Of a stretch of DNA of 64,000 nucleotides, positions 870 to 63,327 are shown piece by piece. A program made the position numbers and the translations under genes. The notes beneath the pieces are model-generated. The model did no database searches. It saw only the letters and a program-made list of their open reading frames with translations, and was not told the DNA's origin. Numbering within the stretch: position 1 is the stretch's first letter; each line of letters opens with the position of its first letter. Origin of the DNA: an uncultured Actinomycetes bacterium (GTDB taxonomy: Bacteria > Actinomycetota > Thermoleophilia > UBA2241); the NCBI GenBank assembly GCA_963767005.1, contig CAVYCN010000003.1:192001-256000 (forward strand). The letters are read 5' to 3'.

Positions 870-1565
870 TCAGCCGATCAGCGCGAAGACGCGGCAGGGC
901 GTGGCCGAGCCGCCGACGAGCGGCAGCGCGCCCGTCACGAGCAGGGCGCCGGTGGGCGGCACCTCGCTCAAGTTGACGAGGCCCTCGAGGTTCCAGACGC
1001 CGTTCACGAGCGTCGCGTGGCGGTGCACCGAGAAGCCGGCGTCGTTGCCCGGGTCGATGCCGAGCGTGTCGATGCCGATGCCCACGACGCCGCGCTGCTC
1101 GACGAGCAGCCGCGCCGCCTCTTCGCCCACCCCTGGGAAGTGCAGGTCGCCCTCGGGACCCATGTACCGCTCACGGTCGTCGCCGAGCACGTCCCAGCCG
1201 GTGTGGATCAGGGCGGCCGCGCCCTGCGGCACCGCGCCGTGCGCGGCCTCGAAACGCGCCACGTCGTCGAGGGTGACGGTGTAATCGGGCTTGCCGGCGC
1301 AGCGGTCGGCCACCTCGATCACGACGGCCGGGCAGACCAGGCCGGCGAGCGGCAGGTTCTCGATCGTGGTGGCGCCGCTGATGAAGTGGGCCGGCGCGTC
1401 GATGTGCGTGCCGGTGTGCTCCCAGATGTGCAGAAGGCGGGCGAAGAAACCGTTCTCCTCGACGGTCACCCTGGTCTCGAAGCTGGGCGCCGGCGTGCCG
1501 GGCCACATGGCGACGTCGGGGTCGATCGGACGGGTGAGGTCGACGACGCGGTCAACGGAGATCAT
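870..1565 (-). CDS. Cyclase family metal-dependent hydrolase (kynurenine formamidase-like)
   Basis: HTGTHIDAPAHF motif, GIDTLGID, ENL-like LEGLVNL. Confidence 0.9.
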   Translation of the reverse strand: MISVDRVVDLTRPIDPDVAMWPGTPAPSFETRVTVEENGFFARLLHIWEHTGTHIDAPAHFISGATTIENLPLAGLVCPAVVIEVADRCAGKPDYTVTLDDVARFEAAHGAVPQGAAALIHTGWDVLGDDRERYMGPEGDLHFPGVGEEAARLLVEQRGVVGIGIDTLGIDPGNDAGFSVHRHATLVNGVWNLEGLVNLSEVPPTGALLVTGALPLVGGSATPCRVFALIG

Positions 1566-1628
1566 GGCGCCCCCTGACGTGTGCATTTTCGGTTCGTCCC
1601 TGTGAGCCGCGCGTAGCAGCCGAGGCGC

Positions 1629-1657
1629 AACGTACCGCCGCCGGCAGTCGGCGTCAA
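1629..1657 (-). promoter_or_regulatory. Sigma70-type promoter of the cyclase gene
   Basis: TTGACG-17 nt-TACGTT on the minus strand. Confidence 0.6.
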
Positions 1658-1724
1658 CGACAGTCGCCAGGCGCGCTACGAAGTCACGCCGGCCTGAACG
1701 GCGACGACGCGGCCGGTCGTCGCC

Positions 1725-2648
1725 CTAGGCCATCACCTCGATGCCCTTCTCGGCGGGGCGGTCCTGGGGCTCGAGCTGAACGATACGGGTGAGCGCCTCG
1801 ATCGCGACCTCGATCTGGTCGACGCTCGGCGGCTTGGTCGTCATCCACTGCAGCGCGAGGCCCGGGGCCATGACGGCACGCACCACGGGGTTGGTCTCGT
1901 AGCGCCCGGCGATGCGGATGATCTCATAGGAGACGCCGGCGATGAGCGGCACGAGCACGACGCGCGACAGGATGAGCAGGTACCACACCGGCCAGCGCAC
2001 GAGGGCGAAGACCAGGATCGACACGACCATCACGACGAGCAGGAACGAGGTGCCGCAGCGCACGTGCAGCGTCTTGTACTTCTCGACGTTGGCGACCGTC
2101 AGCGGATCGCCGTGCTCGAGGGCGTGGATCGACTTGTGCTCAGCGCCGTGGTACTCGAACACGCGGCGCAGGTCGCGAAACTGCGTGATGACGAGCAGAT
2201 AGACGACGAAGATGGTCACACGCACGAGGCCCTCGACCAGCCAGAAGACGATGCCCGAGCCGAGCTGTGCCCGGAACAGCCGCGTGATGCCGAGCGGCGC
2301 CAAGAAGAAGACGAGGACGGCGAAGGCGAGCGCGATGAACAGGGTGACGCCGATCTCGCGGCCGGAGAGCTCCTGGCCCTCCTCGCCGAGCGACTGGTTG
2401 GCCGAGATGGTGAGGGCGCGGACGCCGACGACGAGCGACTCGACGAGGGCGGTCACGCCGCGCAGCACGGGCAGCTTCAGCACGGGGTAGCGCTTCATGT
2501 ACGAGACGAGCGGCCACGACTCGAGGTAGATCGACGAGTCGGGGCGACGCACGGCCACCGACCAGTTGTCGACGCCGCGCATCATGACCCCCTCCATCAC
2601 CGCCTGGCCACCGATCGCCGCGCGGCGGGCCGCGACGGCCGGCAGCAT
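1725..2648 (-). CDS. DUF1385 (YqhQ-like) membrane protein
   Basis: IGGQAVMEGVMMR, YHGAEHK, RCGTSF motifs; start trimmed from a longer ORF; TAG stop. Confidence 0.9.
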   Translation of the reverse strand: MLPAVAARRAAIGGQAVMEGVMMRGVDNWSVAVRRPDSSIYLESWPLVSYMKRYPVLKLPVLRGVTALVESLVVGVRALTISANQSLGEEGQELSGREIGVTLFIALAFAVLVFFLAPLGITRLFRAQLGSGIVFWLVEGLVRVTIFVVYLLVITQFRDLRRVFEYHGAEHKSIHALEHGDPLTVANVEKYKTLHVRCGTSFLLVVMVVSILVFALVRWPVWYLLILSRVVLVPLIAGVSYEIIRIAGRYETNPVVRAVMAPGLALQWMTTKPPSVDQIEVAIEALTRIVQLEPQDRPAEKGIEVMA

Positions 2649-2731
2649 GAGCGCACGCAGGAGGCGGTGGGTCGTCCTACGGCGGACGGGGCGCGTGCCA
2701 TGCGCCTCGCGGCCGGGCACGCGCGCGGCGT

Positions 2732-3466: not shown

Positions 3467-3473
3467 CGGCGCG

Positions 3474-3854: not shown

Positions 3855-5420
<1,566 letters not shown>

Positions 5421-8030: not shown

Positions 8031-8050
8031 GCGACCCCCCCGCCGCTCCG

Positions 8051-11285: not shown

Positions 11286-12374
11286 TCACGCCCTCGCCGG
11301 CACGGCGAGGGCGCGCTCGATCTCGGCCAGAGGCTCCGACGTGAACACGGGCTCGGCCGCCGTGCGCACGGCGGTGTCGGGGTCCTTGAGGCCGTGACCG
11401 GTGAGCACGCACGTCACCAGCGCCCCGGCCGCGATGCGGCCGTCCTCGCGCGCCTTGCGCAGACCCGCGATCGATGCCGCGCTCGCCGGTTCGCAGAACA
11501 CGCCCTCGGTCGCCGCCACGAGCCGGTAGGCCGCCACGATCTCGTCGTCGGTCACCATATCGATGAAGCCGCCCGAGTCGCGCGCCGCCGCGAGAGCCTC
11601 GTCGCCACGCGCCGGATTGCCGATGCGGATCGCCGTGGCGATCGTCTCGGGAGCATCGATGCGGTGGCCGAGCACGAGCGGTGCCGCGCCCGCCGCCTGA
11701 AAGCCGCACATGACCGGCAGACGGTCCGTCACGCCCGCGTCGCGATACTCGCGGTAGCCCTTCCAGTAGCTCGTGATGTTGCCGGCGTTGCCGACCGGTA
11801 TGCAGTGATACGCGGGCGGCCCGCCGAGCGCGTCGCAGACCTCGAAGGCGCCGGTCTTCTGCCCCTCGATACGGTAGGGGTTGACCGAGTTCACGAGGGC
11901 GACCGGCAGCCGTGCGGCCGCCTCGCGCACGACGTCGAGGGCGACGTCGAAGTTGCCCGGGATCGACACCACATGGGCGCCGTACGCCACCGCCTGGGCG
12001 AGCTTGCCCATGGCGATCTTGCCCTCGGGGATCACGACGATCGCCCTGATGCCGGCCTTGGCCGCGTAGGCCGCCGCCGAGGCGCTCGTGTTGCCGGTAG
12101 AGGCGCAGACGACCGCGCGGAAGCCGTCCTCGATCACCTTGCTGACCGCCATCGTCATGCCGCGGTCCTTGAACGAGCAGGTCGGGTTCAGGCCCTCGAG
12201 CTTCAGGTGGAGCTCCACACCGAGCGCCTCGCCCAGGCGCGGCGCCGGCACGAGCGGCGTGTCGCCCTCGCCGAGAGTGACGATCGGGGTCGCGTCGGTC
12301 ACGGGCAGGTAGCGCCGGTAGCGGGCGATCACGCCGGCGCCACGGCCGGCCGGTCCCGCGGGGCTAGCCGCCAT
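11286..12374 (-). CDS. thrC: Threonine synthase
   Basis: [13 protein letters not shown] lysine, ASTGNTS, PVGNAGN. Confidence 0.95.
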
Positions 12375-13647
12375 CGCGACCCTCGATCCTGATCACGCTC
12401 GGCTGGCCGTGAACGGCGGGCAGCGCGGCGATGCGCGCGAGGGCGGCGAAGAAGGCCGCCTCGCGCACCGGGTGCATGACGAGCACGAGCTGGGCGCCGT
12501 CGTCGCCTCCGGTCTGCTGCATCGAGTCGATGCTGACGCCCTCGTCGCCGAACACGCCGGCGATCGTGGCCAGCACGCCGGGCTGGTCGGCCACTCGCAT
12601 GCGCAGGTAGAAGCGCGAGGCCACGTCGGCGCTGGGAAACGGGTCGAGCTGCTTGAAGCAGGTGCAGTTGCGCACGTAGCCGCCGCGTGCCGTGTTGACG
12701 ATCGAGATGACGTCGCCGATCACGGCCGAGGCGGTGGGCGTGCCGCCGGCGCCGGGACCGAGCAGCATGATGCTGCCGAAGCTGTCGGCTTCGAGGAACA
12801 CGGCGTTATAGGCGCCCGACACGCCGGCGAGCGGGTGCTCGAGCGGCACGAAACTGGGGTAGACGCGCACATTCACGCGATCGTCGATCAGGCGCGCCAC
12901 GCCGAGCAGCTTGGGCACGAGACCCAGGCGGCGGCCGTGGCCGACATCGACGTCGGTGACGCCCTCGATGCCCTCGTGCTCGACGTCGCCAAGGACGACC
13001 CGGCTATGGAAGGCGATCGAGGCGAGGATCGCCATCTTGGCGGCAGCGTCCTTGCCGGTCACGTCGTCGCTGGGATCGGCCTCGGCGTAGCCGAGCTCCT
13101 GGGCCCTGGCAAGCGTCGGCCCGTACTCGGCCCCGGTCTGCGCCATGGCTGAGAGGATGTAGTTGGTCGTGCCGTTGACGATGCCCATGACGCCGGTGAC
13201 GCGCGCCGCCGCAAGCGACTCGCGCAGCACCTTGATGACGGGCACGGCGCCGACCGAGCTCGCCTCGAACCGCAGGAACGTGCCGCCGTCCTCGGCCGCC
13301 TGCAGGAGCTCCGCACCGTGCTGCGACAGGAGCTGCTTGTTGGCGGTCACGACCGACTTGCCGGCGGCGAGCGCGGCGAGCTGGATCGTGCGCGCCGGCT
13401 CGATGCCGCCGATCAGCTCGATGACGACGTCGATCGCGGGGTCGGCGATCAGATCGTCGACGTCGGTCGTCGCGCGCACGCCGGCCGGCACGAGCGCGCG
13501 CCGCTCGGCCGAGAGATCGCAGACGGCGCGCAGGCGCACCTCGCGACCCGTGGCCAGGCGGATCTCGTCGGCGCTCTCGACGAGCAGCCGGCCCACACCC
13601 GACCCCACCGTCCCGTATCCAACAAGCCCGATGCCGACCTCGCTCAC
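12364..13647 (-). CDS. hom: Homoserine dehydrogenase with C-terminal ACT domain
   Basis: [27 protein letters not shown]; TAG stop. Confidence 0.95.
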
Positions 13648-13729: not shown

Positions 13730-15064
13730 TCACGCGCGGCCCGTCTCGCGCAGTGGCCGCTGCAGGCGCGCCACGTCCTGCCAGGTCTCGCGCTCGACGA
13801 TCACCCGCGCCTTGCCGCCGCCCGCCATGACCACGGCCGGTCGCGGCACCATGTTGTAGTTGTTCGCCATGACGTAGCCGTAGGCGCCGGTGCCAGGCGT
13901 GACCAGCACGTCGCCGACCTCGGGCGGCGCGATCGCCACGTCGCGTACGAGCACGTCGCTCATCTCGCAATGCTTGCCGGCCACGGTCACGACCACGCTC
14001 GCCGGCGTCTCGGCCTTGCCGGCCAGCATGGCCTCGTACTTCGAGTCGTAGAGCATCGGCCGCAGGTTGTCGCTCATGCCACCGTCGATCGCGACGTACG
14101 TGCGCACGCCGGGGATCTCCTTGATCGTGCCGATCGTGTACGCCGTGACCGCCGCCTTGCCGGCGATCGACCGGCCGGGCTCGACCAGCAGGCGTGGCAG
14201 GGGCAGGCCATAGCGTTCAGACGACGCCCGGGCGGCGCCCACCACGGCCTCGGCGAACTCGGCGATCGACGAGGGCCGGTCCTGCTCGGTGTAACGGATG
14301 CCGAGGCCGCCGCCGAAGTTGACCAGGCGACACTCGAAGCCGTGCTCGCGACGCCAGTCGGCGACGGCGGCGAACAGCACCTCGACCTCGCGGCGGTGCG
14401 ACGACAGGTCGAAGATCTGCGAGCCGATGTGGGCGTGCACGCCGACGAGCTCGAGGTCGGCGGCAGCGGCGAGCAGGCGGCGCACCGCCTCGCCGGCAAG
14501 CCCCTCGGACAGACCGAAGCCGAACTTGCTGTCGGCCTGGCCGGTCTGCACGTAGCTGTGCGTCGTCGGTCGGACGCCGGGCGTGAGTCGCACCAGGACT
14601 CGCTGGCGTACGCCACGCCGCCGCGCCGCCGCGGCCAGCAGCTCGATCTCGTGCAGCGAGTCGACGACGAAGAAGCCGATGCCGGCGTCGAGCCCGGCGT
14701 CGATCTCGGCCGGCGACTTGTTGTTGCCGTGGAAGTAGATCCGCTCGGGCGGCACGCCGGCGAGGCGCGCCGTGAAGAGCTCGCCCCCCGAGGCGACGTC
14801 GAGCGACAGGCCCTCTTCGGCGACGAGCTCGCACATGGCGCGACAGCAGAACGCCTTGCTCGCGTACACGATCTCGGTGTCGGCGAGGCGCGAGCGAAAG
14901 GCGTCGACGTAGGCGCGGCACTGGTCGCGCAGCGTCTGCTCGTCGTAGATGAACAGCGGCGTGCCGAAGCGCGCGGCGAGCTCGACCACGTCGCAGCCGC
15001 CGATCTCGAGGTGACCGGCGGCGTTGTGGCGGGAGGTGTGCGGATAGATCAGCGTGTGCGTCAC
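13730..15064 (-). CDS. lysA: Diaminopimelate decarboxylase
   Basis: YASKAF, HIGSQ, EPGRS, GKHCE; leaderless (TAGGAT 6 nt before the GTG). Confidence 0.95.
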   Translation of the reverse strand: MTHTLIYPHTSRHNAAGHLEIGGCDVVELAARFGTPLFIYDEQTLRDQCRAYVDAFRSRLADTEIVYASKAFCCRAMCELVAEEGLSLDVASGGELFTARLAGVPPERIYFHGNNKSPAEIDAGLDAGIGFFVVDSLHEIELLAAAARRRGVRQRVLVRLTPGVRPTTHSYVQTGQADSKFGFGLSEGLAGEAVRRLLAAAADLELVGVHAHIGSQIFDLSSHRREVEVLFAAVADWRREHGFECRLVNFGGGLGIRYTEQDRPSSIAEFAEAVVGAARASSERYGLPLPRLLVEPGRSIAGKAAVTAYTIGTIKEIPGVRTYVAIDGGMSDNLRPMLYDSKYEAMLAGKAETPASVVVTVAGKHCEMSDVLVRDVAIAPPEVGDVLVTPGTGAYGYVMANNYNMVPRPAVVMAGGGKARVIVERETWQDVARLQRPLRETGRA

Positions 15065-22880: not shown

Positions 22881-23155
22881 CAGGTCCTCCTTCACGCACT
22901 GCTGCCGTCAGCAAGGTCTTCTCGCTCCGGGCGCTCGAACGCGCAGGCCGGCAAGAAGCTCAGGTTGCAGGACACGTCCGACCCCATCGTCGCGCACGGA
23001 CGCCGGCTCAGGCTACAGAAGCCCGACTCGCTCTGCAACCGGGCGTCCACGCGCCGCCGATCCACCCCTTGCGCCGCGCCCAGTTCCCGTTACCATACCT
23101 GCGGCGCATGGGCGGTGCGTCGCGCCCGCGCGAGACGACGACCAGGGGGGCATCC

Positions 23156-46353: not shown

Positions 46354-46995
46354 TTACCTGCCGAGCAGGGCGTCGATCTTCTTGACGCCGTCCGAGGCGT
46401 CCTCGGCGTAGGCGTCGGCGCCGATCTGGTCGGCCCAGCGCTGCGTGCAGGGGGCACCGCCGACCACGGTCTTGAAGGGCAGGCCCTCGTCGCGGATGAT
46501 CTTGATGACGCGGCGCTGCTCTTCCATCGTGGTGGTCAAAAGGGCGCTCATGCCGATGATGTCGGCGCCCTGCTCCTTGGCGCGGGCGATGAAGGTCTCG
46601 GCCGGCACGTCGCGGCCGCAGTCGGTGACGTCGTAGCCGTGGGCCTTCAGGTAGGCGATCACGATCGCCTTGCCGATGTCGTGCACGTCGCCCTGCACGG
46701 TGCCGATGATGACGGTGCCCTTCTTCTCGGCGGCGCCGCCCTCTAAGGCCGCGTTACAGACCCGGGTGGCGGCGTCCATCGCCTGGGCGGCGAGCATGAG
46801 CTCGGGCAAAAAGACCTCGCCCGACTCGAAGAGGTCGCCGACCTCGCTGATGCCGGCCACGAAACCCTTGTTGACGATCTCGCCGGGGCTCATGCCGGCC
46901 GCCAGGGCGCGCGTGGCGACGTCCTCGGCGGCGGCGGCGTCGTAGTTGACGATCGAATCGATCGCTTCCTGGATGAGCTCGTCTGTGTTGGCCAT
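46354..46995 (-). CDS. Methylamine-type methyltransferase corrinoid protein (MttC/MtbC-like)
   Basis: FLPEL cap, GDVHDIGK, SALLTTTM, VGGAP.TQRWADQIGAD; SD GAGGAGGAG. Confidence 0.93.
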   Translation of the reverse strand: MANTDELIQEAIDSIVNYDAAAAEDVATRALAAGMSPGEIVNKGFVAGISEVGDLFESGEVFLPELMLAAQAMDAATRVCNAALEGGAAEKKGTVIIGTVQGDVHDIGKAIVIAYLKAHGYDVTDCGRDVPAETFIARAKEQGADIIGMSALLTTTMEEQRRVIKIIRDEGLPFKTVVGGAPCTQRWADQIGADAYAEDASDGVKKIDALLGR

Positions 46996-47184: not shown

Positions 47185-48063
47185 ATGCGTTACGTCGGCG
47201 CCGTCATCCGTCCGCCCAGCGAGGCTGCGAGCCTGATCGTACAGGTCACCTACGGCTGCTCCAACGCCTCGTGCGACTTCTGCTCGACCTACCTCGACAA
47301 GCCCTTCGCAGTGCGCCCCGCCGACGAGGTCGAGCAGGACCTGGCCGACCTGCCGCTCGCCATCAAGGAGCGCGTGCGCCGCGTCTTTCTGGCCGACGGC
47401 GACGCCCTCGCGCTGTCGCGCCGCCGGCTCGAGCACATCCTCGGGCTGCTGCGCCGCGAGCTGCCGGCCCTGGAGCGCGTGAGCTCCTACGCCAACGCCC
47501 GCAACCTGCTCACCAAGAGTCCCGACGACCTGGGCGCGATCCGCGCCGCCGGGCTCGAGCTGCTCTACCTGGGCCTCGAGTCGGGCGACGAGGAGACCCT
47601 CGCCGCCATCCACAAGGGCATCACCGTGGCCGAGCAGATCGAGGGTTGCGCCCGCGCGACGGCGGCCGGCTTCGAGCTCTCGGTCACCGCCATCCTCGGC
47701 CTGGCCGGGCCCGCACGCTCGCTCGCCCACGCGCGCGCCACGGGCGCCGCCCTGTCGGCCATCGACCCGCGCTACATCGGCGTGCTCAGCCTCATGGTCG
47801 AGCCCGGTACGCGCACGGCGGCGCGGGTCGCGTCGGGCGAGTTCGTCGTGCCCGACGCCTTCACCATGCTGCGCGAGCTGCGCGAGATCGTCGCCACGAC
47901 CGACGTGACCGACGCGCTGTTCCGCTCGAACCACGCCTCGAACTACCTGCCGGTCGGTGGCCGCCTGCCGCGCGACAGGGACGCCATGGTGGCGGCCCTC
48001 GACGGCGTGCTGTCGGCGCCCGACCGGGCCCGTCTCAAGCCCGAGGAGTGGCGCCTGCTGTAG
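47185..48063 (+). CDS. Radical SAM protein
   Basis: IRPPSEA, CSNASCDFC, FLADGD, GLESG, RSNHASNY; leaderless (TGGTACAAT); TAG stop. Confidence 0.88.
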   Translation: MRYVGAVIRPPSEAASLIVQVTYGCSNASCDFCSTYLDKPFAVRPADEVEQDLADLPLAIKERVRRVFLADGDALALSRRRLEHILGLLRRELPALERVSSYANARNLLTKSPDDLGAIRAAGLELLYLGLESGDEETLAAIHKGITVAEQIEGCARATAAGFELSVTAILGLAGPARSLAHARATGAALSAIDPRYIGVLSLMVEPGTRTAARVASGEFVVPDAFTMLRELREIVATTDVTDALFRSNHASNYLPVGGRLPRDRDAMVAALDGVLSAPDRARLKPEEWRLL

Positions 48064-48091: not shown

Positions 48092-48433
48092 CTAGTGTCC
48101 GGTGTCCCGCTCGCGCAGGAACGACCCGTAGCCCCGCCGGAACTTGGTCGCGGCGTACTTCTGCAGCTTCCACTCCGGGATGCGGCACTGCGGGCAGGCC
48201 TCGAAGAAGAGCTTGTTGCGCAGCCAGCGCGCCGAGCGGCTCGTCTTGGAGTCGCGCACGATCATGACCTTGCCGCAATGGGTAGTCAGGCGCGCCCTGC
48301 TGCCCAGCACCTCGAACTCCTTGACGCCGTGCAGCAGGCCGCGGCGCGAGGGCCACAGCTTCATCTTCTCGACGAGCCTGAAGAGCGGCACCTGCTTGCG
48401 GTAGTAGACGACCTTGTTGGGATCGGTGGGCAC
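48092..48433 (-). CDS. pylSn: Pyrrolysine--tRNA ligase N-terminal tRNA-binding subunit
   Basis: LVEKMKLWPSRRGLLHGVK, THCG, DSKTSRSARWLRNK, CPQCRIPEWKL; leaderless (TGCTACACT); TAG stop. Confidence 0.95.
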   Translation of the reverse strand: MPTDPNKVVYYRKQVPLFRLVEKMKLWPSRRGLLHGVKEFEVLGSRARLTTHCGKVMIVRDSKTSRSARWLRNKLFFEACPQCRIPEWKLQKYAATKFRRGYGSFLRERDTGH

Positions 48434-50985: not shown

Positions 50986-51058
50986 TGGCGGGGAGTAGGG
51001 GAGTTACACCCCTCTACGTGGATTTAGAGTCCACGCTGATCCTTCCGATCGACCCCCC
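50986..51058 (-). tRNA. pylT: tRNA-Pyl, anticodon CUA
   Basis: GGGGGGU C GAUC GGAAG GAUC AG CGUGGA CUCUAAA UCCACG UAG AGGGG UGUAACU CCCCU ACUCCCC G CCA: 1-nt connector, 5-nt D loop, 6-bp anticodon stem, no TpsiC, G discriminator, encoded CCA. Confidence 0.97.
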
Positions 51059-51101: not shown

Positions 51102-51923
51102 TCAGCGCGTGAGCGCCTCGACGGCCATCGCGGCCACACCGAGGGCGAGCGGCTCGTGCACGAGCCGCTCGCCCAGCGCCCGGGCCGCGGCTGCCGTGAC
51201 GCCGGGCGGCAGGCCCGGCGAGCTCACCACGCCGTCGCTGCCCACCCAGCCGGCGTCGATCAGGTCGGGCGTGGGGGTGGCGTCGAGCACGAACCGGCTG
51301 CGCGCGAGGCCGTCGGCCAGCGTGACCGGCGTGACCTGCGGCAGCTCGGCGACGATGGGCGCGAGACGCGCCTCGTCGCGCTCGCAGACGAGCACGTCGG
51401 CGCCGAGCGTGACCAGACGGGCGGCGGCGGCCCGGCCGACGGGGCCGAGGCCGATCAGCAGGACGGGCCGGCCGGCGAGGCCGGCGGGCCCGGCGGCGGC
51501 CGCGAGCGCCGCGACGTAGGCGTGCGCCGTGCAGGGATCGTCGTCGGCGACCACGCGGCGCGCGAAGTCGAGCGCCAGGAACCTGCCGTCGTCGGCGGCG
51601 AAGACGAGGTCGTCGCCGGCCTTCAGGGCCTCGCCGAAGCCGGCCACGTCGGTGGCGTCGGTCACGCGGGCGCGGCAGCCCAGGCGGGCGCAGATGGCGG
51701 CGACGCAGTCGACGAAGCCGGGGATGACGCCCTCGCCGCTCGTGATCGGCACGACGGCGACGGCGGCCTGGGCGAGGGCGTCGCGGGCGACACCCGCGGA
51801 TGCGCCGCAGGCCCGCGCGGCCAGTGCGACGAAGTCGCAGCCGGTGAGCGCCACCAGGCGCCCCTCGACCTCGTCGAGATGCGCGGTCAGCGTACGGACG
51901 TCGTCCTCGACCAGTCTCGTCAC
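51102..51923 (-). CDS. pylD: 3-methylornithyl-N6-L-lysine dehydrogenase
   Basis: MTRL, VPITSGEGVIPGF, TDVAG, AADD, IGLGPVG, HEPLALGVAAM. Confidence 0.93.
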   Translation of the reverse strand: MTRLVEDDVRTLTAHLDEVEGRLVALTGCDFVALAARACGASAGVARDALAQAAVAVVPITSGEGVIPGFVDCVAAICARLGCRARVTDATDVAGFGEALKAGDDLVFAADDGRFLALDFARRVVADDDPCTAHAYVAALAAAAGPAGLAGRPVLLIGLGPVGRAAAARLVTLGADVLVCERDEARLAPIVAELPQVTPVTLADGLARSRFVLDATPTPDLIDAGWVGSDGVVSSPGLPPGVTAAAARALGERLVHEPLALGVAAMAVEALTR

Positions 51924-51941: not shown

Positions 51942-53240
51942 CTACTCGAGCACGACGTCGAGGCCGTACTCGCCCGCCAGGCGGTCGACGGCGGCCGCGG
52001 CGCGCATGCGCGCCTCGGCCGCCGTCTCGCCTCTCGTCATGATCACGGCGACCCAGCCGCCTGCCCGGCTGCGGGCGCGCGCCTCGCGCGCCTCGCCGAG
52101 GTCGACCACCTTGGCCCCGAGCGCGCGTTCGACCGGCCCGTCGGTCAGCACCACGTCGGCGCCCCACAGGCCCTCGCAGCGACGCAGGGGACCGGCCGCC
52201 CCGACCACGTGCTCGCCCAGCACCTGCACCCGCCCGTCGGCGACGAGCACGTGCTCGTAGACGGCGCCGCGCCGGGCGGCGGTCGCGGCCGGTCCGGCGG
52301 CCAGATCGGCCGGCACGGCGCCGCTCGCGAACGTCTCGGCCAGGACCTGGACGATGTTGACGTCGCTCGCGTGGTAGGCGCAGGCCGGCGTCTGGCTGGG
52401 CAGCCGCGCGTCGATCTCGAGCACCTTGGGCACGCCGGCGTGCCCCATCATGACCTCGACATCCATCACGCCGCCCAGCCCGGCGGCGGCGCCCGCGCCG
52501 GTGCGACCGACGCCGGCCGCGAGGCGCCGGCTCACCTCGTCGAGCGCGGCCAGCGCCCCGTCGTCGATCAGGTCGGAGCCACCGCCCTGCGCGGCGGGGT
52601 CCTTCGCCGCCTGCGCGACCGGGGCGACGACGCGTTTGCAGTCCCAGCCCGCGTCGAACTCGAGCCAGGTGGGCGCCAGCGTGACCGTCGCGCCACCGTA
52701 CGAGACCATGTCGACCGAGAGCGAAGGCCCGGGCACGTACTCCTCGATGACGGCGTCGGCGCCGCTTGCGGCCAGACGGGCGCGCGCGAGCGCGAGCTCG
52801 GTATCCGACCAGACGAGCTCGACCTGCACGCTGCCGCTCCCCACGCTCGGCTTGACGATCACGGGAAAGCCGCAGGGCCAGGGCGCCGGGCGGGGCACGT
52901 CGAGCCGCGCGAACAGCTCGTTCGAGCGCAGCTTGGACTGGGTCACCGCGTAGGCGTCGGGGTCGAAGAGCAGCGGCACGCCCAGCCCTGGCACGAACGA
53001 GGCGAGAAAGGCGAGCGTGCGCTCGTCCTCGCAGGCCGGCAGCACGGCGTCGCACGACAGGAGCACCTCGCGAGTGCGGGCCGGGTCGACGGCGACGTCG
53101 AACACGTGGCTCTCGGCGGCCAGGCCGGCCGCCGGCCGCCCCGGGCGCCGGTCGACCAGCACGACGTCGTAACCGGCCTCGCCGGCCAGGTACGCCGCCT
53201 CGGTGCCCTGCAGCTTGCCGCCGACGACCGCGAGCCTCAT
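51942..53240 (-). CDS. pylC: 3-methylornithine--L-lysine ligase (ATP-grasp)
   Basis: VVGGKLQGTEAAYLA, SKLRS, VKPSVGSGS, DCKRV, MDVE, EIDARLPSQTP; ATGA overlap with pylB; TAG stop. Confidence 0.94.
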   Translation of the reverse strand: MRLAVVGGKLQGTEAAYLAGEAGYDVVLVDRRPGRPAAGLAAESHVFDVAVDPARTREVLLSCDAVLPACEDERTLAFLASFVPGLGVPLLFDPDAYAVTQSKLRSNELFARLDVPRPAPWPCGFPVIVKPSVGSGSVQVELVWSDTELALARARLAASGADAVIEEYVPGPSLSVDMVSYGGATVTLAPTWLEFDAGWDCKRVVAPVAQAAKDPAAQGGGSDLIDDGALAALDEVSRRLAAGVGRTGAGAAAGLGGVMDVEVMMGHAGVPKVLEIDARLPSQTPACAYHASDVNIVQVLAETFASGAVPADLAAGPAATAARRGAVYEHVLVADGRVQVLGEHVVGAAGPLRRCEGLWGADVVLTDGPVERALGAKVVDLGEAREARARSRAGGWVAVIMTRGETAAEARMRAAAAVDRLAGEYGLDVVLE

Positions 53241-54370
53241 GCGGGGCGCTCGGCGGCCGCCACCCCGTCGCCGCCCGCGGCGATCGCGGCCGCCGCCCGG
53301 CGGCCGCGCGCGGCCGCCACCCAGGCGGCGTACTCGGCCGCGCTCGCGACCCGCAAGCCTGACTTGGCCAGCCGTTCCACGACGACGGGCGCGGTGCGCA
53401 AGCCGGCGTCGATGTCGAGCTCGGACTGCGAGACGCCGGCGAGACCGGTGTGGGGCGGCACGAGCGACGTGACGACGTTCGCGCCGGCGGCGATGCGCGA
53501 CTCGAGGCCGGCGATGCCGTCGACGTCGAGCGACGCGGGGATCAACCGGTCGGGCATGGCCAGGCGCATGGTGGCGATCGTGACGAGCTCGCCGAGCCGT
53601 CCGGCCGGTCGCAGGTCGGCGAGCGGGGTGCCGCGCTGCGGCACGAAGGTCATGACGCGCACCTGGTCGAGCGGCTCGGCCCGCATGGCGGTCACCGTCA
53701 TGGCGCGCTCGGCCACCGTCTCGCCGACGCCGAGCAGCATGCCGTCCTCGACCAGCATGCCGCGCGCGGCGGCGTCGAGTCGCGCCTGGGCGCGCTCGTC
53801 GAAGTCCTGACCGACCCGCAGGCGGTCGTACAGCTCGCGGGCCTGCGTCTCCTGGTAGCAGGCGTACCACTCGGCGCCGGTCGCGGCCAGAGCGGCGAGG
53901 GCGCCGGGCCCGAGCACGCCCGGCGAGGCCATCACCGGCAGGCCGGTGGTGGCGCGCACCGCCGACACGAGCACGAGAAAGGCGTCGAACTCGCGGCCCT
54001 CGCGGTAGCGCGGGTCCTCGCCCATGGTGAGGTCGATCAGGTGGACGCCTGATCCGGCGAGGCCGACGCTGATCGCCACGACCTCGTCGAGCGACTTGCG
54101 GTACCGCGGCCCCGCGCGGTTGCTGCGACGGTACAGGCAGAACGTGCAGTCGTTGCGACAGTACGTCGAGAAGTAGACGAAGCCGTAGAGAAAGACGGCG
54201 TCGCCGAACCGCCGCCGGCGCAGCTCGCTCGCGGCGGCGAACAGGTCGGCCGCCGCGGCCTGGTCGTCGACCGCGAGCAGCGTGGCGATCTCGCTGTCCG
54301 ACGGCCCCTGCCCGGCGAGCGCCCGTTCCAGGATCGGAGCGATGGCGGCCGACGCCGCGTCGGGCCTCAT
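53237..54370 (-). CDS. pylB: 3-methylornithine synthase (radical SAM lysine mutase)
   Basis: YGFVYFSTYCRNDCTFC, HLIDLTMGED, CYQET, RVMTFVPQ.GTP, IPASLDVDG, GANVVTS. Confidence 0.96.
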   Translation of the reverse strand: MRPDAASAAIAPILERALAGQGPSDSEIATLLAVDDQAAAADLFAAASELRRRRFGDAVFLYGFVYFSTYCRNDCTFCLYRRSNRAGPRYRKSLDEVVAISVGLAGSGVHLIDLTMGEDPRYREGREFDAFLVLVSAVRATTGLPVMASPGVLGPGALAALAATGAEWYACYQETQARELYDRLRVGQDFDERAQARLDAAARGMLVEDGMLLGVGETVAERAMTVTAMRAEPLDQVRVMTFVPQRGTPLADLRPAGRLGELVTIATMRLAMPDRLIPASLDVDGIAGLESRIAAGANVVTSLVPPHTGLAGVSQSELDIDAGLRTAPVVVERLAKSGLRVASAAEYAAWVAAARGRRAAAAIAAGGDGVAAAERPA

Positions 54371-54456: not shown

Positions 54457-54742
54457 GAGCCCGCGAGGAGCCCGATGTGAGGAAATGGGACGACACCCCG
54501 TGGCCGCCGCCGCGCGCCGGCCAGGCCGCGCGGACCGGCGAGGCGCGGCCCGACTCCGGCGAGCGCGACGCGAAGCCGGTCCGGCTGCTGCCGTTCCGCC
54601 TGCGCTCGCTGAAGAGTAGATCGCGGACCGGCGTGCCCGAGCGACCGCGCGGCGCCTGACGGCGACCGGCGGTCCTTGCCGCCCCACGACGACCGGCGGC
54701 TCGTGACCCGACGCGCCGCCGCCGCTTGGGCGACCCCGCGAG

Positions 54743-55055: not shown

Positions 55056-56072
55056 TTACGCGACGGTGTCCCGCTGCAGGCGTGCGGCCACGGCGGCGCT
55101 GAACTCGCGGGTGCCGGCGGTGCCGCCGAGATCGCGGGTGAGGTGGCTGCCCTCGGCGAGCACCGCGGCCACGGCGCCGGACAGCCGGTCGGCGGCCGCA
55201 TCCTCGCCCAGGTGAGCCAGCATGAGCGCGCCCGACAGCAGGAAGGCCGTCGGATTGACGATGTCCCGCCCGGCGATGTCGGGGCCGCTGCCGTGCACCG
55301 CCTCGAACACGGCGCACTCGGGCCCGATGTTGGCGCCCGGCGCCATGCCGGGGCCGCCGATCAGGCCGGCGCAGAGATCGCTCACGATGTCGCCGTACAG
55401 GTTCGGGCAGACGAGCACGTCGAAGCGCTCGGGCGCCATGACGAGCTGCTGGCAGAGATTGTCGACGATGCAGTCGTCGAGCTCGATGTCGGGGTAGCCG
55501 GCGGCGACCTCGCGGACGCAGCGCAGGAACAGGCCGTCGGTCAGCTTCATGATGTTGGCCTTGTGCACCGCCGTCACCCGGCGGCGACCGCGGGCGCGGG
55601 CGTAGTCGAAGGCAAAGCGCGCGATGCGCTCGCTCGCCGCTCGCGTGATCACCTTGATCGACTCGGCCTCATCGGCACTCACCTGGCGCTCGATGCCGGC
55701 GTAGAGGTCCTCGGTGTTCTCGCGCACGACCACGAGGTCGACGCCCGTGAAGCGGCTGGGCACGCCGGGCAGCGAGCGCACCGGCCGCAGGCACGCGTAC
55801 AGGTCGAGCTCCTTGCGCAGCGCCACGTTGACCGAGCGAAAGCCGCTGCCGACCGGCGTGGTGACCGGGCCCTTGATCGCCACTTTGGTCTCGCGCACCG
55901 ACTCGAGGACGTCGTCGGGCAGCGGCACGCCGGCCCGCTCGATGACTGCGGCACCGGCGTCGCGACGCTGCCAGGCGATCTCGACGCCGCTGGCCGCGAC
56001 GACCGTCTCGAGGGCGGCGGCGAGCTCGGGCCCGGTGCCGTCGCCGGGGATCAGCGTGACGGTGTGCGGCAC
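55056..56072 (-). CDS. Isocitrate/homoisocitrate/isopropylmalate dehydrogenase family
   Basis: IPGDGTGPE, SVNVALR, RENTEDLY, HKANI, NLYGDIVSD, EAVHGS. Confidence 0.9.
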   Translation of the reverse strand: MPHTVTLIPGDGTGPELAAALETVVAASGVEIAWQRRDAGAAVIERAGVPLPDDVLESVRETKVAIKGPVTTPVGSGFRSVNVALRKELDLYACLRPVRSLPGVPSRFTGVDLVVVRENTEDLYAGIERQVSADEAESIKVITRAASERIARFAFDYARARGRRRVTAVHKANIMKLTDGLFLRCVREVAAGYPDIELDDCIVDNLCQQLVMAPERFDVLVCPNLYGDIVSDLCAGLIGGPGMAPGANIGPECAVFEAVHGSGPDIAGRDIVNPTAFLLSGALMLAHLGEDAAADRLSGAVAAVLAEGSHLTRDLGGTAGTREFSAAVAARLQRDTVA

Positions 56073-56077
56073 GGGCC

Positions 56078-56608
56078 CTACCCCTCGGGCAGGTGGAACT
56101 CGCCGTAGCGGCGGAAGTGCTCGACGAGGCCGCCGTCGGAGAGGATCTTGAGCATGACCGGCGGCAGCGGCGCGAAGGGCAGGACGAGGCCCCTGGTCAG
56201 GTCGCGCACCTCGCCGACCTCGAGGTCGACCTCGAGGTCGTCCCACTGCTCGACGGCGCTCGTGTCGCAGGTGAGCGCCGGCAGGCCGACGTTGATCGCG
56301 TTGCGAAAGAAGATGCGGGCGAAGGACTGGGCGAGGACCGCGCCGGCGCCGGCCAGCCTGATGATGCGCGGCGCATGCTCGCGGCTCGAGCCCAGGCCGA
56401 AGTTGCGCCCGCCGACCACGAAGTCGCCCGGCTTGATGCGCTTGGCGAACTCGGGGTTCTCGTCCTCGAGCACGTGCTTGGCGAGCTCGGGCAGGTCGGT
56501 GCGCAGGTGAAACAGGCGACCGGGCGCGATCTGGTCGGTCGAGATGTCGTCGCCGAACGTCCAGGCGCGGCCGCGCAGGACCCCGGGGCTGCCGCTCGGC
56601 GCGGTCAT
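56078..56608 (-). CDS. LeuD/HacB-type dehydratase small subunit
   Basis: [27 protein letters not shown]; TAG stop. Confidence 0.9.
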
Positions 56609-56611
56609 CGG

Positions 56612-57127
56612 TCAGGCGTCGCTTTCGGCGATCGTCACGCTGTTCATGGCAAGGCCGGGCTCGCGCGCCGTCATCGGGTCGCGCGGCGGGATCGCGAGCA
56701 CGACGTCCATGCCCGACACGACCCGCCCGAACACGGCGTGCTTGCCGTCGAGGTGGGGCGTCGCGCGGTGCGTGATGAAGAACTGCGAGCCGTTCGTGTT
56801 CGGCCCGGCGTTGGCCATCGACAGCACGCCGGGCCCGTCGTGCACGAGGCCCGGGCCGAACTCGTCGGCGAAGCGGTAGCCGGGACCGCCGCGGCCGGTG
56901 CCGGTTGGGTCGCCGGTCTGCGCCATGAAATCAGGGATGACGCGGTGGAACGTGACGCCGTCGTAGTAGCCGTCACGGGCCAGGAACACGAAGTTGTTGA
57001 CGGTGGCCGGCGCCTTGTCGGCGTAGAGCTCGACGACGATGTCGCCGCGGTCGGTCGCGATCGTGGCCTTGTAGGCGTGGGTCGGGTCGATGCCCATGGC
57101 CGGCGGGGCGTCGTACTGCTTAGCCAT
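56612..57127 (-). CDS. Cyclophilin-type peptidyl-prolyl isomerase
   Basis: FHRVI, QTGDP, LSMANAG, NGSQFFI, HAVFG. Confidence 0.94.
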
Positions 57128-58427
57128 CGTGGTCTCCTTCGGTCGGGTGCTCGCCGCCCGCCGGCGCGCCGGCGGCGAGCAGCTCGCGCGGGTCGACGAT
57201 CTCGCCGGCGACGGCCGCCGCGGCCGCCGTGAGCGGCGAGGCGAGGTAGATGGCGCCCTGGGGGTTGCCCATGCGCCCCTTGAAGTTGCGGTTGGCGGTG
57301 CTCACGCAGACCTCGCCGTCGGCGAGGATGCCCTGGTGCACGCCGACGCAGGCGCCGCAGCCCGGGTTGGTGACGACCGCGCCGGCGTCGGCGAAGGCCT
57401 GCAGGAGCCCCTCGTCGACGGCCGCGCGCCACACCGCCTGCGAGGCCGGCGTGACGATCAGGCGCGTGCGCGCCGCCCGCCGCCGGCCGCGCAGCAGACG
57501 CGCGGCGGCGCGCAGGTCGTCGAGGCGGCCATTCGTGCAGGTGCCGATCAGCACCTGGTCGACCCGAGTGCCGGCGAGCTCGCTCGCCGGGTGCACGTTG
57601 TCGACCGTGTGGGGCGCGGCCAGCACCGGCACGATCTCGTCGGCGATGAACGACAGGCTGCGCTCGTAGACGGCGTCGGCATCGGGCTCGACCGCGCGCC
57701 AGTCGGCCGCCCGCCCCCGGTCGGCGAGGAACGACCTGGTGACGCCGTCGCTCGCCACGAGGCCGGCCTTGGCGCCGGCCTCGACCGCCATGTTGCTCAG
57801 GGTCAGGCGCTCGTGCATGGGCAGCGCGTCGATCGCGGGCCCGCCGAACTCGAGCGCCTTGTAGGTGGCGCCGTCGGCGCCCAGGCGGCCGATGAGCGTG
57901 AGGACGAGGTCCTTGGCGCTGACCCCGTCGGCGAAGCGCCCGCCGACCTCGACGCGGAAGGTCTCCGGCACGCGCAGCCAGGTCTGGCCGGTCGCCATGC
58001 CGATCGCCACGTCGGTCGAGCCCATGCCGGTGGCGAAGGCGCCCAGGGCGCCGGCCGTGCAGGTGTGCGAGTCGGCGCCGATCACGAGGTCGCCGGGCCG
58101 TGCGTAGCTTTCGGCGACGCGCTGGTGGCAGACGCCCATCTCGACGTCGGACAGGGTCGCGCCCGTCTCGGCGCAGAAGCAGCGCACGATCTCGTGGGCG
58201 TTGGCGAGCTCGACGCGCGGCGCCGGCGCCGCGTGGTCGATGAAGAACACGGCGCGCGGCACGGTGACGCGCACGCGGCCAAGCTCGCGGAGCTGCTGGA
58301 TGGCGAGCGGCCCGGTGCCGTCCTGAGCGATCGCCAGGTCGACCATGGCGACCACGATCTGACCGGCCTGGACCGAGTCGAGCGCCGTGTGGGCGGCGAT
58401 GACCTTCTCGGCGATGGTGGCGGGCAC
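57120..58427 (-). CDS. LeuC/HacA-type dehydratase large subunit
   Basis: [35 protein letters not shown]. Confidence 0.92.
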
Positions 58428-58438
58428 CGCCCGACCGC

Positions 58439-59668
58439 CTACCCGTCGCCCTCGGCCGCTTGGGCGCCGGGCAGCGGCACGGCGTCGCCCAGGCGCCCGA
58501 CGTAGTCCTGGTAGATGTACATGATCTCCTTCGAGAACAGGGCGCGCTTGAGCTCGACCGCGGTCTGCCGCACCATCTTCAGGATCTCCTCGGCGTCGTG
58601 CTGGGACAGCTCGATGCCGAACTCCTGGAACTTGCGGTAGATCGTGCGCGAGCCCGAGTGCTTGCCGACCACGATCTGCCGTTCGAGCCCGACGTCCTCG
58701 GGCGAGTAGGCTTCGTAGTTGAGCGGGTTCTTGATGACGCCGTCGGCGTGGATGCCCGACTCGTGGGCGAACACGTTGGTGCCCACGATGCTCTTCCAGT
58801 CGGGGATCGTGCGGGCCGACGCCGCCGCCACGTACTCGCACAGCTCGCGGAAGCGCGACGTGTGCAGGCCCAGCTCGACGTGGCCGATGTACTTGAGCGC
58901 CATGACGACCTCTTCGAGGGCGGCGTTGCCGGCCCGCTCGCCGAGGCCGTTCACCGTCGTGTTGACGTAGGTCGCACCGGCCTTGATGCCGGCCAGGGCG
59001 TTGGCCGTGGCCATGCCGAAGTCGTCGTGGGTGTGCATCTCGATCTCGAGGCCCTGCAGGTGCAGGAACCGCACCACGTTGTAGGTGTCGAACGGGTCGA
59101 GGATGCCGAGCGTGTCGCAGAAGCGCAGGCGGTCGGCGCCCTCGTCCTTGGCGGCCTGGCCGAAGCGCAGCAGGAACTCGAGGTCGGCGCGGCTTGCGTC
59201 TTCGGCGTTCACCGACACGTAGACGCCGTGCTCCTTGGCGAAGGCCACGCAGGCGCGGATCTGGTCGAGCACCCACTGGCGCGACTTCTGCAGCTTGTGC
59301 TCGATGTGGATGTCGCTCGCCGACATCGAGATGGCGACGGCGTCGACACCGCAGTCGAGCGAGTGCTGGATGTCGGAGATCACGGCCCGGTTCCAGGCGA
59401 GGATCGAGGGCTTGAGACCGAGCTCGACGATCTGGCAGATGACCTGCTTCTCGTCGCCGAGCATGGCCGGGATGCCGACCTCGATCTGGTGCACGCCGAC
59501 CTCGTTCAGCAGGCGCGCGATGCGGATCTTCTCGTGGTTGGAGAACACGACGCCGGCGGTCTGCTCGCCGTCGCGCAGGGTGGTGTCGTCGATGCGCACC
59601 GACGGCCCCTCGGCCGGCTCTTCGCCGATGACGAAGGTCGACAGGTCGCCCGGGTGGAACTCGCTCAC
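58439..59668 (-). CDS. Homocitrate synthase family (NifV/AksA-like)
   Basis: DTTLRDGEQ, EDASRAD, HTHDDFGMATAN, GERAGNA, HESGIH; no LeuA regulatory domain; TAG stop. Confidence 0.85.
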   Translation of the reverse strand: MSEFHPGDLSTFVIGEEPAEGPSVRIDDTTLRDGEQTAGVVFSNHEKIRIARLLNEVGVHQIEVGIPAMLGDEKQVICQIVELGLKPSILAWNRAVISDIQHSLDCGVDAVAISMSASDIHIEHKLQKSRQWVLDQIRACVAFAKEHGVYVSVNAEDASRADLEFLLRFGQAAKDEGADRLRFCDTLGILDPFDTYNVVRFLHLQGLEIEMHTHDDFGMATANALAGIKAGATYVNTTVNGLGERAGNAALEEVVMALKYIGHVELGLHTSRFRELCEYVAAASARTIPDWKSIVGTNVFAHESGIHADGVIKNPLNYEAYSPEDVGLERQIVVGKHSGSRTIYRKFQEFGIELSQHDAEEILKMVRQTAVELKRALFSKEIMYIYQDYVGRLGDAVPLPGAQAAEGDG

Positions 59669-61131: not shown

Positions 61132-62657
61132 CGCTCGACCGCCTCGCCGGTCGGGTCGCCGGGCGGGCCGCCGGAGGCCACGTCCGCCTCGCGTGAGTCG
61201 CGGAACGTCGGCACGGCGTCGAAGCCGAGCGCCCCTTCGATCGCGTGGGCGGCGGCCAGGATGCGGTTCTCGGAGAACGCCGGCCCGATGATCTGGAAGC
61301 CGACCGGCAGATGGCCGGCCAGGCCGCATGGGATCGAGATCGCCGGCAGCCCGGCGAGGTTGACCGGCAGGGTGCAGATGTCGCTCATGTACATGGCGAG
61401 CGGGTCGGCGGTGCGCGTGCCCATGCCGAAGGCGACGGTCGGCGAGGTCGGCGACACGATCAGGTCGACCTGGCCGAAGGCCGTCTCGAAGTCGCGCCGC
61501 ACGAGGGTGCGGACCTTCTGCGCCTGGCCGTAGTAGGCGTCGTAGTAGCCCGACGAGAGCGCGTAGGTGCCGATCATGATGCGGCGCTTGACCTCGGGCC
61601 CGAAGCCCTCGGCTCGCGTGGCCTCGTACATCTCGGTGAGGTCGGCGGCGTGCGGCGAGCGGTAGCCGTAGCGCACGCCGTCGTAGCGCGCGAGGTTCGC
61701 GCTCGCCTCGGCCGGCGCGATGATGTAGTAGGCCGGCAGGGCGTACTCGGTGTGCGGCAGGCTGATCTCGACGCAGGTGCCGCCGAGCTCCTCGATCAGG
61801 GCCACAGTCTGCTCGAAGCGGGCCATGACACCGGGCTCGATGCCGGCCGCGAGGTACTCGGTGGGGATGCCGAAGTGGACGCCGTCGAGACGCTCGGCGG
61901 TGGGCAGCTCGATCGGGTCGGGCAGCGCCACCGAGGTCGAGTCGCACGGGTCGTGCCCGGCGATGCGGCGCAGCAGCATGGCGCAGTCGTAGACGGTGCG
62001 CGTGAGCGGTCCGATCTGGTCGAGCGAGCTCGCGAAGGCCACGAGCCCGTAGCGCGACACCAGACCGTAGGTGGGCTTCATGCCGACGATGCCGCAGAGC
62101 GCCGCGGGCTGGCGGATGGAGCCGCCCGTGTCTGAGCCCAGCGCCCAGAGCGCCTCGCCGGCGGCGACGGCGGCGGCGGAGCCGCCCGAGGAGCCGCCCG
62201 GCACCGTGCCGAGGTCCCAGGGGTTGTGCGTGGCGCCGAAGGCCGAGTTTTCGGTCGACGAGCCCATCGCGAACTCGTCGAGGTTGGACTTGCCCAGCAT
62301 GACGATGTGATCGCCCCAGATGCGGCGCACGGCCGTCGCGGTGTACACGGGCTGGTAGTTGGCCAGGATGCGCGAGCCGCACGTGGTGGTGACGCCCTCG
62401 GTGACCATGTTGTCCTTGATGGCCGTCGGCAGGCCGGCCAGGGCGCCGCGCGTGGCGCCGGCCTCCTGGTCGATCTCGGTCGCGAACTTGGCGGCGTTGT
62501 CGGCGGTGACCAGGATGAAGGCGTGCACGCGACTCTCGACGCGCTCGATCTGGTCGAGGTAGGTCTTGGTGAGCTCCGACGCGGCGAGCTCGCCCTCGAC
62601 GAGCAGGCGCCGCGCCTCGCGCGCCGTCAGGCGCAGCGGGTCGAGGCCGGCGGTCAC
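61128..62657 (-). CDS. gatA: Asp/Glu-tRNA amidotransferase subunit A
   Basis: IKDN, GGSSGGS, SDTGGSIRQP, EVKRRI. Confidence 0.97.
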   Translation of the reverse strand: MTAGLDPLRLTAREARRLLVEGELAASELTKTYLDQIERVESRVHAFILVTADNAAKFATEIDQEAGATRGALAGLPTAIKDNMVTEGVTTTCGSRILANYQPVYTATAVRRIWGDHIVMLGKSNLDEFAMGSSTENSAFGATHNPWDLGTVPGGSSGGSAAAVAAGEALWALGSDTGGSIRQPAALCGIVGMKPTYGLVSRYGLVAFASSLDQIGPLTRTVYDCAMLLRRIAGHDPCDSTSVALPDPIELPTAERLDGVHFGIPTEYLAAGIEPGVMARFEQTVALIEELGGTCVEISLPHTEYALPAYYIIAPAEASANLARYDGVRYGYRSPHAADLTEMYEATRAEGFGPEVKRRIMIGTYALSSGYYDAYYGQAQKVRTLVRRDFETAFGQVDLIVSPTSPTVAFGMGTRTADPLAMYMSDICTLPVNLAGLPAISIPCGLAGHLPVGFQIIGPAFSENRILAAAHAIEGALGFDAVPTFRDSREADVASGGPPGDPTGEAVER

Positions 62658-62938
62658 GACTGCATCCTGGGCACGCGGAAGCAGTCGGCGCTCACCGCCG
62701 GCGCGTTGCGCAGCGCGTCGTCGCGCGAGAGGCCGGGCCGCGGCTTGTCGGACCGCACCACGTCGGTCACGGCGAGCACGTGGGCGGTCGGCTCGACCGC
62801 GGCGAGATCGAGCTCGCCGATCTTGTCGATGTGGTCGAGGATCTTGGCAAGCTCGGCGGTCATGCGCTCGGCCTCGGCCGGCTCGAGCCGCAGACGCGCC
62901 AGGCGGGCGACGTGACGGACGTCGTCTTGCTCGATCAT
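62654..62938 (-). CDS. gatC: Asp/Glu-tRNA amidotransferase subunit C
   Basis: VRHVARLARL, VEPT, NAP, FRVP. Confidence 0.93.
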   Translation of the reverse strand: MIEQDDVRHVARLARLRLEPAEAERMTAELAKILDHIDKIGELDLAAVEPTAHVLAVTDVVRSDKPRPGLSRDDALRNAPAVSADCFRVPRMQS

Positions 62939-63054
62939 GCGTCCTCCTAGCACATCCCCGCGCGGGCGGGCCTGCTATCGTACCAGAAACCGCGGGGGCG
63001 CGAGAGCGCGCGCGCGAGCGGCGGCGGCGCGGCATCGGCTGCCCGGCCCCCGAC

Positions 63055-63092
63055 GAAGAAGCGGCCCCGCCGGACTGGTCCGGCGGGGCCGC
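63055..63092 (-). terminator. Intrinsic terminator after the cold-shock gene
   Basis: 15-bp inverted repeat gcggccccgccggac/gtccggcggggccgc followed by UUCUUC on the minus strand. Confidence 0.75.
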
Positions 63093-63123
63093 GGAGCGGC
63101 GTGGATCTGCGCCGGTACGGCGA

Positions 63124-63327
63124 TCAGCCGACCGGCACGACCTTGGAGGCCTGGAGGCCCTTGTCGCTCTGGGCGATCTCGAACTCGACCGCCTGCCCCT
63201 GGTTCAGGGTCTTGTAGCCGTCGACCTGGATCTCTGAGAAGTGGACGAACAGGTCTTCACCCTCTTCACGTTCGATGAAGCCGTACCCCTTCTCATTGCT
63301 GAACCACTTCACTGTTCCTCGGGCCAA
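63124..63327 (-). CDS. Cold-shock protein
   Basis: GTVKWF, KGYGFI, DLFVHFS; TTG start after AGGAGG. Confidence 0.95.

Follow-up and report, generated by a model that had tools for sequence, protein, structure and literature searches.

The pyl locus and TAG as a working stop codon

The 64,000-nt stretch analysed here (the window, positions 192001 to 256000 of contig C3) belongs to the 3.44-Mb genome of an uncultured actinobacterium of the class Thermoleophilia, with about 71% GC, and it holds the genes for decoding TAG as pyrrolysine (Pyl). The bacterial pyl cassette is complete, with pylT, PylSn, PylSc, PylB, PylC and PylD, and the five proteins scored above their NCBIfam cut-offs in a check of 57 window proteins. 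The catalytic part of the split pyrrolysyl-tRNA synthetase (PylRS) is encoded by pylSc on the forward strand at 44048-44911 (TIGR02367, 297.8 bits versus a cut-off of 178) and ends in TAG. Its start overlaps the stop of an upstream cell-wall (peptidoglycan) amidase gene; this pair occupies window positions 42984-44911, and the two genes stand side by side in 17 of the 19 pyl loci compared. The remaining components lie on the reverse strand: pylSn, the free-standing N-terminal domain of PylRS (48092-48433; TIGR03912, 122 bits versus 51; TAG stop); pylT, the tRNA-Pyl, found by ARAGORN with a CUA anticodon and a cloverleaf-like fold (50986-51058); pylD (51102-51923; TIGR03911, 194.7 versus 150; TGA stop); pylC (51942-53240; TIGR03909, 279 versus 248; TAG stop); and pylB (53237-54370; TIGR03910, 428.6 versus 348; TGA stop).

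Stop codons were counted with a self-trained dicodon gene caller, which made 61 calls in the window ending in 26 TAG, 31 TGA and 4 TAA. Without two short, weakly scoring TGA calls (25115-25243 and 54477-54659), the counts were exactly the 26/29/4 of 59 genes from which an earlier note on this DNA had put TAG at about 44% of stops. This share was not typical of the genome, in which TAG ended 954 of 2948 calls (32.4%, stable over score thresholds), or 905 of 2800 (32.3%) once 16 Pyl junctions were removed. The window is thus a mild upward draw (26/59, binomial p=0.04), with equally high TAG in 3 of 50 non-overlapping 61-gene blocks of the genome. The core point of the note, that TAG is not depleted despite the Pyl machinery, holds: we looked for genome-wide depletion and found none, the window being high rather than the genome low.

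The genome also did not fall below Pyl-negative relatives, whose TAG shares were taken from samples of 100-200 kb rather than whole genomes. Two relatives that are 98% complete, G020 and G027, yielded no PylSc, mtbB or Pyl mttB in the searches made, and their samples had TAG at 45/135 and 25/113 stops (together 70/248, 28%). Four Pyl-positive genomes of the sister genus that they share had 79/334 (range 11-32%; Fisher p=0.21), four Pyl-negative genomes of other families had 86/328 (26%), and the pyl loci of 18 further samples had 94/312. The lowest share seen, 10 of 93 sampled stops, was that of G029, a genome with 15 mtbB matches, and could be early TAG depletion.

TAG works as a stop in this genome. 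Release factors RF1 and RF2 both passed their family cut-offs, RF1 being intact. The note had listed six housekeeping genes ending in TAG, and this was borne out by NCBIfam matches that finish 4-9 residues before the TAG. They comprise rho (3855-5384), in which the TAG is a true stop, and rpmE, encoding L31 (3474-3686), each with more than 500 codons to the next in-frame TGA or TAA; hom (12364-13647; 398 codons); sigH (30150-30833; 382 codons); cysS (32202-33749; 396 codons); and uppP (42005-42853; 345 codons), the last on the forward strand and the others on the reverse strand. Elsewhere rplL, rplA, rplK and rpmG terminate in TAG, and the TAG share climbs from 29.5% to 37.2% across codon-bias quartiles. 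Genome-wide, the median distance from a TAG stop to the next TGA or TAA was 94 codons; thus, there are no backup stops behind TAG and no sign of their enrichment. Backup stops were not reliably present after TAG-ending pyl or methyltransferase genes either. Convergent gene pairs ended in TAG in 338 of 732 cases, more commonly than co-oriented genes, possibly an effect of the caller.

The frequency of TAG in this genome is ordinary, and the pattern is already described for bacterial Pyl users (PMC1976440, PMC3941956). Desulfitobacterium hafniense uses UAG frequently as a stop (PMC1976440), and a preprint on genetic code 34 describes TAG as otherwise a stop in bacteria (10.1101/2024.09.30.615893). 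The note had set the window against Pyl-using methanogens, which deplete TAG. Its surprise was overstated, because methanogens are the wrong baseline for bacterial Pyl users; even Pyl-positive archaea span TAG shares of 1-27%, with a median of about 5%, and ambiguous decoding has been shown among them (PMC12626013). Like D. hafniense and other bacterial Pyl users, our genome has a split PylSn/PylSc, Pyl confined to methylamine methyltransferases and UAG as a frequent stop.

Codon and hairpin marks at the Pyl TAG

We predicted 16 Pyl genes in the genome (7 mttB, 8 mtbB and 1 mtmB), each with one in-frame TAG at the family position, compared with one such gene in D. hafniense and eight in an Olavius symbiont. 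All lie outside the window, the nearest at C3:80980, 158114 and 159499, with mtbB, mttB and corrinoid genes arranged in runs. Since Pyl genes themselves end in TAG in 4 of 16 own cases and 21 of 105 in the family, one mRNA often uses both meanings of the codon. Among relatives, PylSc passed its cut-off in 32 of the 36 members of the family and in 1 of 24 from elsewhere in the class, and mtbB was present in 58 of 60, with exactly one in-frame TAG in all 150 matches listed. A search of 401 genomes found mtbB in two, both Thermoleophilia, and none outside the class. The 3.4-Mb genome has 41 MttB-family matches, of which only 7 have the Pyl TAG, a very large methyltransferase expansion, and it also holds three non-Pyl MtmB homologs.

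The codon before the Pyl TAG is mostly a rare one. All 12 leucines preceding own Pyl TAGs are encoded by TTG or TTA, codons that make up 2.3% of leucine codons genome-wide and 1 of 69 leucines before stop TAGs. In the family, this codon is TTR in 55/57 mtbB and 6/6 mtmB genes, and mttB mostly has GGT-GCG. A GGN-UUR or GG(G/U)-GCG pair stands just 5' of the Pyl UAG in 15 of the 16 own genes, and GGN-TTR-TAG was found in 65 of 105 Pyl genes compared with none of 919 stop TAGs. Moreover, among 73 non-redundant metagenome mtbB genes, 69 of 70 leucines were TTR, versus 21.7 expected from the usage of the same genes. Whole-gene codon alignments showed an excess of rare codons at codons -2 to +45, with 9/47 columns versus 6/444 elsewhere in mttB, 12/47 versus 4/405 in mtbB and 13/47 versus 26/412 in mtmB. 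Fourfold sites elsewhere in the Pyl methyltransferase genes are only 56-61% identical, whereas the marks are nearly invariant. We rejected the base after the stop as a means of telling the two kinds of TAG apart, since G is found behind 43% of stop TAGs as well as behind 15 of 16 Pyl TAGs.

All 16 own Pyl genes carry, downstream of the TAG, a hairpin capped by an AG(A/G)N tetraloop; it is made up of rare synonymous codons, and its loop starts at +72 (mttB), +78 (mtbB) or +114 (mtmB). In mttB, +66 to +71 pairs with +76 to +81 around an AGGN loop; in mtbB, +66 to +77 pairs with +82 to +93 around AGAY; and the mtmB stem-loop runs from +92 to +141 with AGGN at +114. In all three families the loop's first A occupies the third position of a codon, which is GCA in 42/42 mttB genes and GGA in 57/57 mtbB genes; in mtmB, 5 of 6 genes have A-ending codons there, and these encode four different amino acids. 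A-ending codons of this kind account for 0.5-3% in the genome. A descriptor with a loop at +45 to +130 and a stem of at least 5 bp matched 41/42 mttB, 47/57 mtbB and 3/6 mtmB genes, including all 16 own genes, compared with 28/917 stop TAGs (about 3%), 52/1802 TGAs and 51/2059 internal sites, a contrast that is partly circular because the descriptor was derived from these same genes. All 29 non-Pyl MttB paralogs lacked the hairpin, including those with the same L-A-G residues. G044, a genome of another family, carries both the mttB and the mtbB hairpins, and at a stem of at least 4 bp the hairpin was present in 64 of 73 mtbB and 9 of 19 mttB genes from metagenomes. At these metagenome loci, loss of the hairpin was not significantly associated with local TAG use (61/215 versus 5/36, p=0.10).

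We then examined covariation in 92 non-redundant mtbB genes, which gave 136 third-position pairs. Pairs 72-87, 75-84, 69-90 and 66-93 were the top four of the 136 and form one nested helix, with 134 two-sided changes versus 55 in shuffles (0/500) and at most 50 when the helix was slid. The mtbB stem thus covaries at synonymous sites. The mttB stem is conserved in the family with only two compensatory cases there, and the mtmB comparison rests on 6 genes. Folding of the first 80 nt directly after the UAG gave no significant z (-1.3 to +1.4), and with loops at +72, +78 and +114, a hairpin directly after the UAG in the style of a selenocysteine insertion sequence (SECIS) was rejected. A second conserved helix of six pairs in mttB, -5 to +1 with +86 to +91, would cover the UAG and could be a by-product of protein conservation. 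An internal Shine-Dalgarno sequence with re-initiation at a GTG behind the mtbB GGAG is not favoured, because the covarying hairpin contains these bases and a start codon is not fixed at this place in mttB. The candidate bacterial recoding marks are, as sequence features, real.

Part of this was already known, namely the retention of UAG as a stop in bacterial Pyl users and the AGAY hairpin of mtbB. All seven own mtbB genes that were scored (of eight) passed the gathering score of Rfam PYLIS_2 (RF02509), whose second hairpin already draws the same AGAY loop. This model is a computational consensus of putative function; here the stem extends to +66/+93 with synonymous-site covariation. Similarly, 7/7 own mttB genes passed the gathering score of PYLIS_3 (RF02510), the consensus of which leaves the mttB hairpin at +66 to +81 unpaired. 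The own mtmB scored below the cut-off of PYLIS_1 (RF01982; 46 versus 70 bits), and its stem-loop lies almost wholly beyond that 100-nt model. Coding-sequence similarity also contributes to the scores of the PYLIS models. The Rfam consensus structures do not include the hairpins of mttB and mtmB or the shared loop. In the literature searched, which left out the majority of subscription papers and supplementary files (Additional file 2 of PMC3639795 among them), we found no prior report of the mttB or mtmB hairpins, the shared loop or the UUR context. The D. hafniense paper reports no common RNA structure (PMC1976440) and PMC3639795 none for mttB, in contrast to the shared tetraloop seen here.

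Further Pyl genes were sought among 2143 TAG or TGA ends followed by 25 or more open codons. The TAG junctions bridged by homologs numbered 10: 8 in known methyltransferases, 1 in a short fragment and 1 in an ABC binding protein; the homolog database was small (the own proteome and 1806 genes of relatives), and further Pyl genes could therefore be missed. The ABC peptide-binding gene (L315:776-2578, or G000:C13:17276-19078) has one in-frame TAG, private to this genome, with neither hairpin nor UUR, and its orthologs at 80-84% identity have no TAG. It may be a nonsense mutation, an assembly error or a neutral Pyl gain. Another 21 TAG ends with a chance hairpin were rejected as extra Pyl genes, having little or no coding signal downstream.

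How TAG may be read in two ways

With 16 Pyl genes alongside about 900 TAG stops, an intact RF1 and no backup stops, TAG must carry two meanings in this genome. The earlier note had proposed control by induction, context or tolerated ambiguity; of these, context dependence gained direct sequence support from the codon and hairpin marks. We give about an even chance to the reading that the marks on the 16 Pyl genes tip the contest between RF1 and Pyl-tRNA to read-through at those sites only. Termination can be affected by the tRNA in the P site, and it is through this tRNA that the UUR or GCG codon 5' of the UAG would act, slowing termination. A ribosome paused at the UAG would not reach as far as the hairpin, whose action would thus need a factor that binds the loop or an effect on ribosome traffic and queuing. 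Methylamines would raise the supply of Pyl-tRNA, as has been reported in other organisms. Ordinary UAGs, which are unmarked, would terminate with little read-through, so that nothing would have pushed TAG out of the genome.

The means by which bacteria discriminate between Pyl and stop UAGs have been called unknown since 2007 (PMC1976440), and a paper of 2025 knows of no targeted mechanism (PMC12626013). A family at 71% GC with many Pyl paralogs makes synonymous constraint easily visible and lets the exact bases be named. If the marks do raise read-through, the view that Pyl needs no mRNA signal would have to be revised, and the marks could supply portable contexts for amber suppression.

Several points weigh against this reading. 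PYLIS elements reportedly made no difference in E. coli, and some Pyl genes are reported to lack them (10.1101/2024.09.30.615893), and decoding in Methanosarcina acetivorans is explained by ambiguity and Pyl supply with no element (PMC12626013, PMC13663744). The source paper of PYLIS_2 covered 12 genomes including TAG-poor Methanosarcina (PMC3639795), so the mtbB hairpin may not be tied to high TAG use. In most mttB genes, the residue before Pyl is not leucine. Nine of the 73 metagenome mtbB genes lack the hairpin, it was found in just 9 of 19 metagenome mttB genes, and the mttB stem showed no significant covariation in a broad 30-gene set. No candidate for a trans factor was found in the own genome and the pyl loci, and related genomes and genes are not independent samples.

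A serious rival, possible rather than probable in our view, gives the hairpins a role in mRNA fate. Decoding would be ambiguous and set by the supply of Pyl-tRNA, and the hairpins would act after termination: the mRNA left bare downstream would fold and either be shielded from Rho or a nuclease or be passed on to one of them, thereby controlling operon polarity or decay. This would fit hairpins located 66-141 nt downstream, beyond a paused ribosome, and the runs of mtbB, mttB and corrinoid genes, where polarity would matter. Supply-driven ambiguity has been shown in M. acetivorans, where it is tied to tRNA charging (PMC13663744); there, as here, UAG is both stop and Pyl and the release factor competes with Pyl-tRNA, but TAG is depleted and no insertion element is invoked (PMC12626013, PMC13663744). 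An mRNA-fate role leaves unexplained the UUR directly before the UAG in three families, and long unbuffered extensions of highly expressed genes would be costly if read-through were high everywhere.

A stronger form of the read-through proposal, which we consider somewhat doubtful, is that the AG(A/G)N hairpin is a true bacterial Pyl insertion signal that arose in three unrelated families, is read by a dedicated factor, with free-standing PylSn as one candidate, and works with the UUR P-site codon so that Pyl recoding is site-specific. As in the SECIS/SelB system, a two-meaning stop codon would be followed by a conserved-loop hairpin that lies within the coding sequence. In contrast, SECIS adjoins the UGA and has a dedicated factor (PMC8318568), whereas the hairpins here start about 60-90 nt away and we found one SelB-like gene and no extra elongation factor, gene names having been read from the sequences rather than from a family scan. 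A gene for EF-Tu was also not recognised in the assembly, whose stated completeness is 100; it was probably lost at a contig end.

Unlikely, in our estimate, is a global switch acting alone, in which only methylamines turn on the pyl genes, every UAG is read the same way once they are on and the conserved codons are inherited leftovers. Regulation, not avoidance of the codon, is indeed how bacteria are said to cope with Pyl (PMC3941956, which cites Prat 2012). However, marks that are nearly invariant next to fourfold sites of 56-61% identity, that covary and that are absent from non-Pyl paralogs do not look like leftovers, and the position of pylSc behind a cell-wall amidase gene, a housekeeping context, may indicate constitutive expression. 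RNA runs gave word shares of 0.06-0.11 on contigs of other strains, with DNA carry-over possible, and weigh neither way.

That the pyl machinery is silent or vestigial and TAG just a stop is very improbable. The only Pyl mttB seen in the relative G031 (L208/L214, C4:518759-520163) is split by a frame change and the closing pair of its hairpin is broken, which may reflect decay of Pyl use or an assembly error. Against this stand the six intact components, the wide occurrence of PylSc in the family and of mtbB with its single in-frame TAG among relatives, and the reported expression of Pyl mttB and mtbB by Actinobacteriota metagenome-assembled genomes (PMC10805028). Full reassignment of TAG to pyrrolysine, as in archaeal code 34, is almost certainly wrong in spite of the extra in-frame TAG in the ABC binding-protein gene, since the products of rho and rpmE would be extended by more than 500 residues, RF1 is intact, 32% of genes end in TAG and only 10 TAG junctions, 8 of them in known methyltransferases, were spanned.

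Stop codons of the pyl genes and neighbouring genes

Among relatives, TAG ends pylSc in 14/26, pylSn in 12/19 and pylB in 0/11 genes. Autoregulation through TAG-ending pyl genes was rejected: the pattern is suggestive for pylS but mixed and drawn from kin. The pylC TAG, found in 2 of 9 pylC genes compared, lies six codons ahead of pylD in the same frame; this in-frame join occurs only here and in one very close relative and is not conserved. One relative's pylSc (G021:C9:10153-10875) has an in-frame TAG inside the match.

Between pylSc and pylSn lie an MtbC-like corrinoid protein gene (46354-46995, reverse strand; TIGR02370, 218.8 versus 215), present in 16 of 19 pyl loci, and, beside pylSn, an uncharacterised radical SAM protein gene (47185-48063, forward strand; PF04055), present in 13 of 19 loci and ending in TAG in 16 of 17 relatives. 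A second methyltransferase corrinoid protein is encoded at 22230-22895 on the reverse strand (TIGR02370, 223 versus 215). Adjoining pylB, window positions 55056-59668 hold genes resembling those for homocitrate synthase, homoaconitase subunits and isocitrate/homoisocitrate dehydrogenase; with lysA at 13730-15064, these genes suggest a possible second lysine-related route. Finally, the genome seems to use both selenocysteine (Sec) and Pyl, as it has a SelB-like gene, a tRNA-Sec and a formate-dehydrogenase-like gene with an in-frame TGA (G000:C4:374451-376409, C4:389248-389345 and C19:163119-164171).

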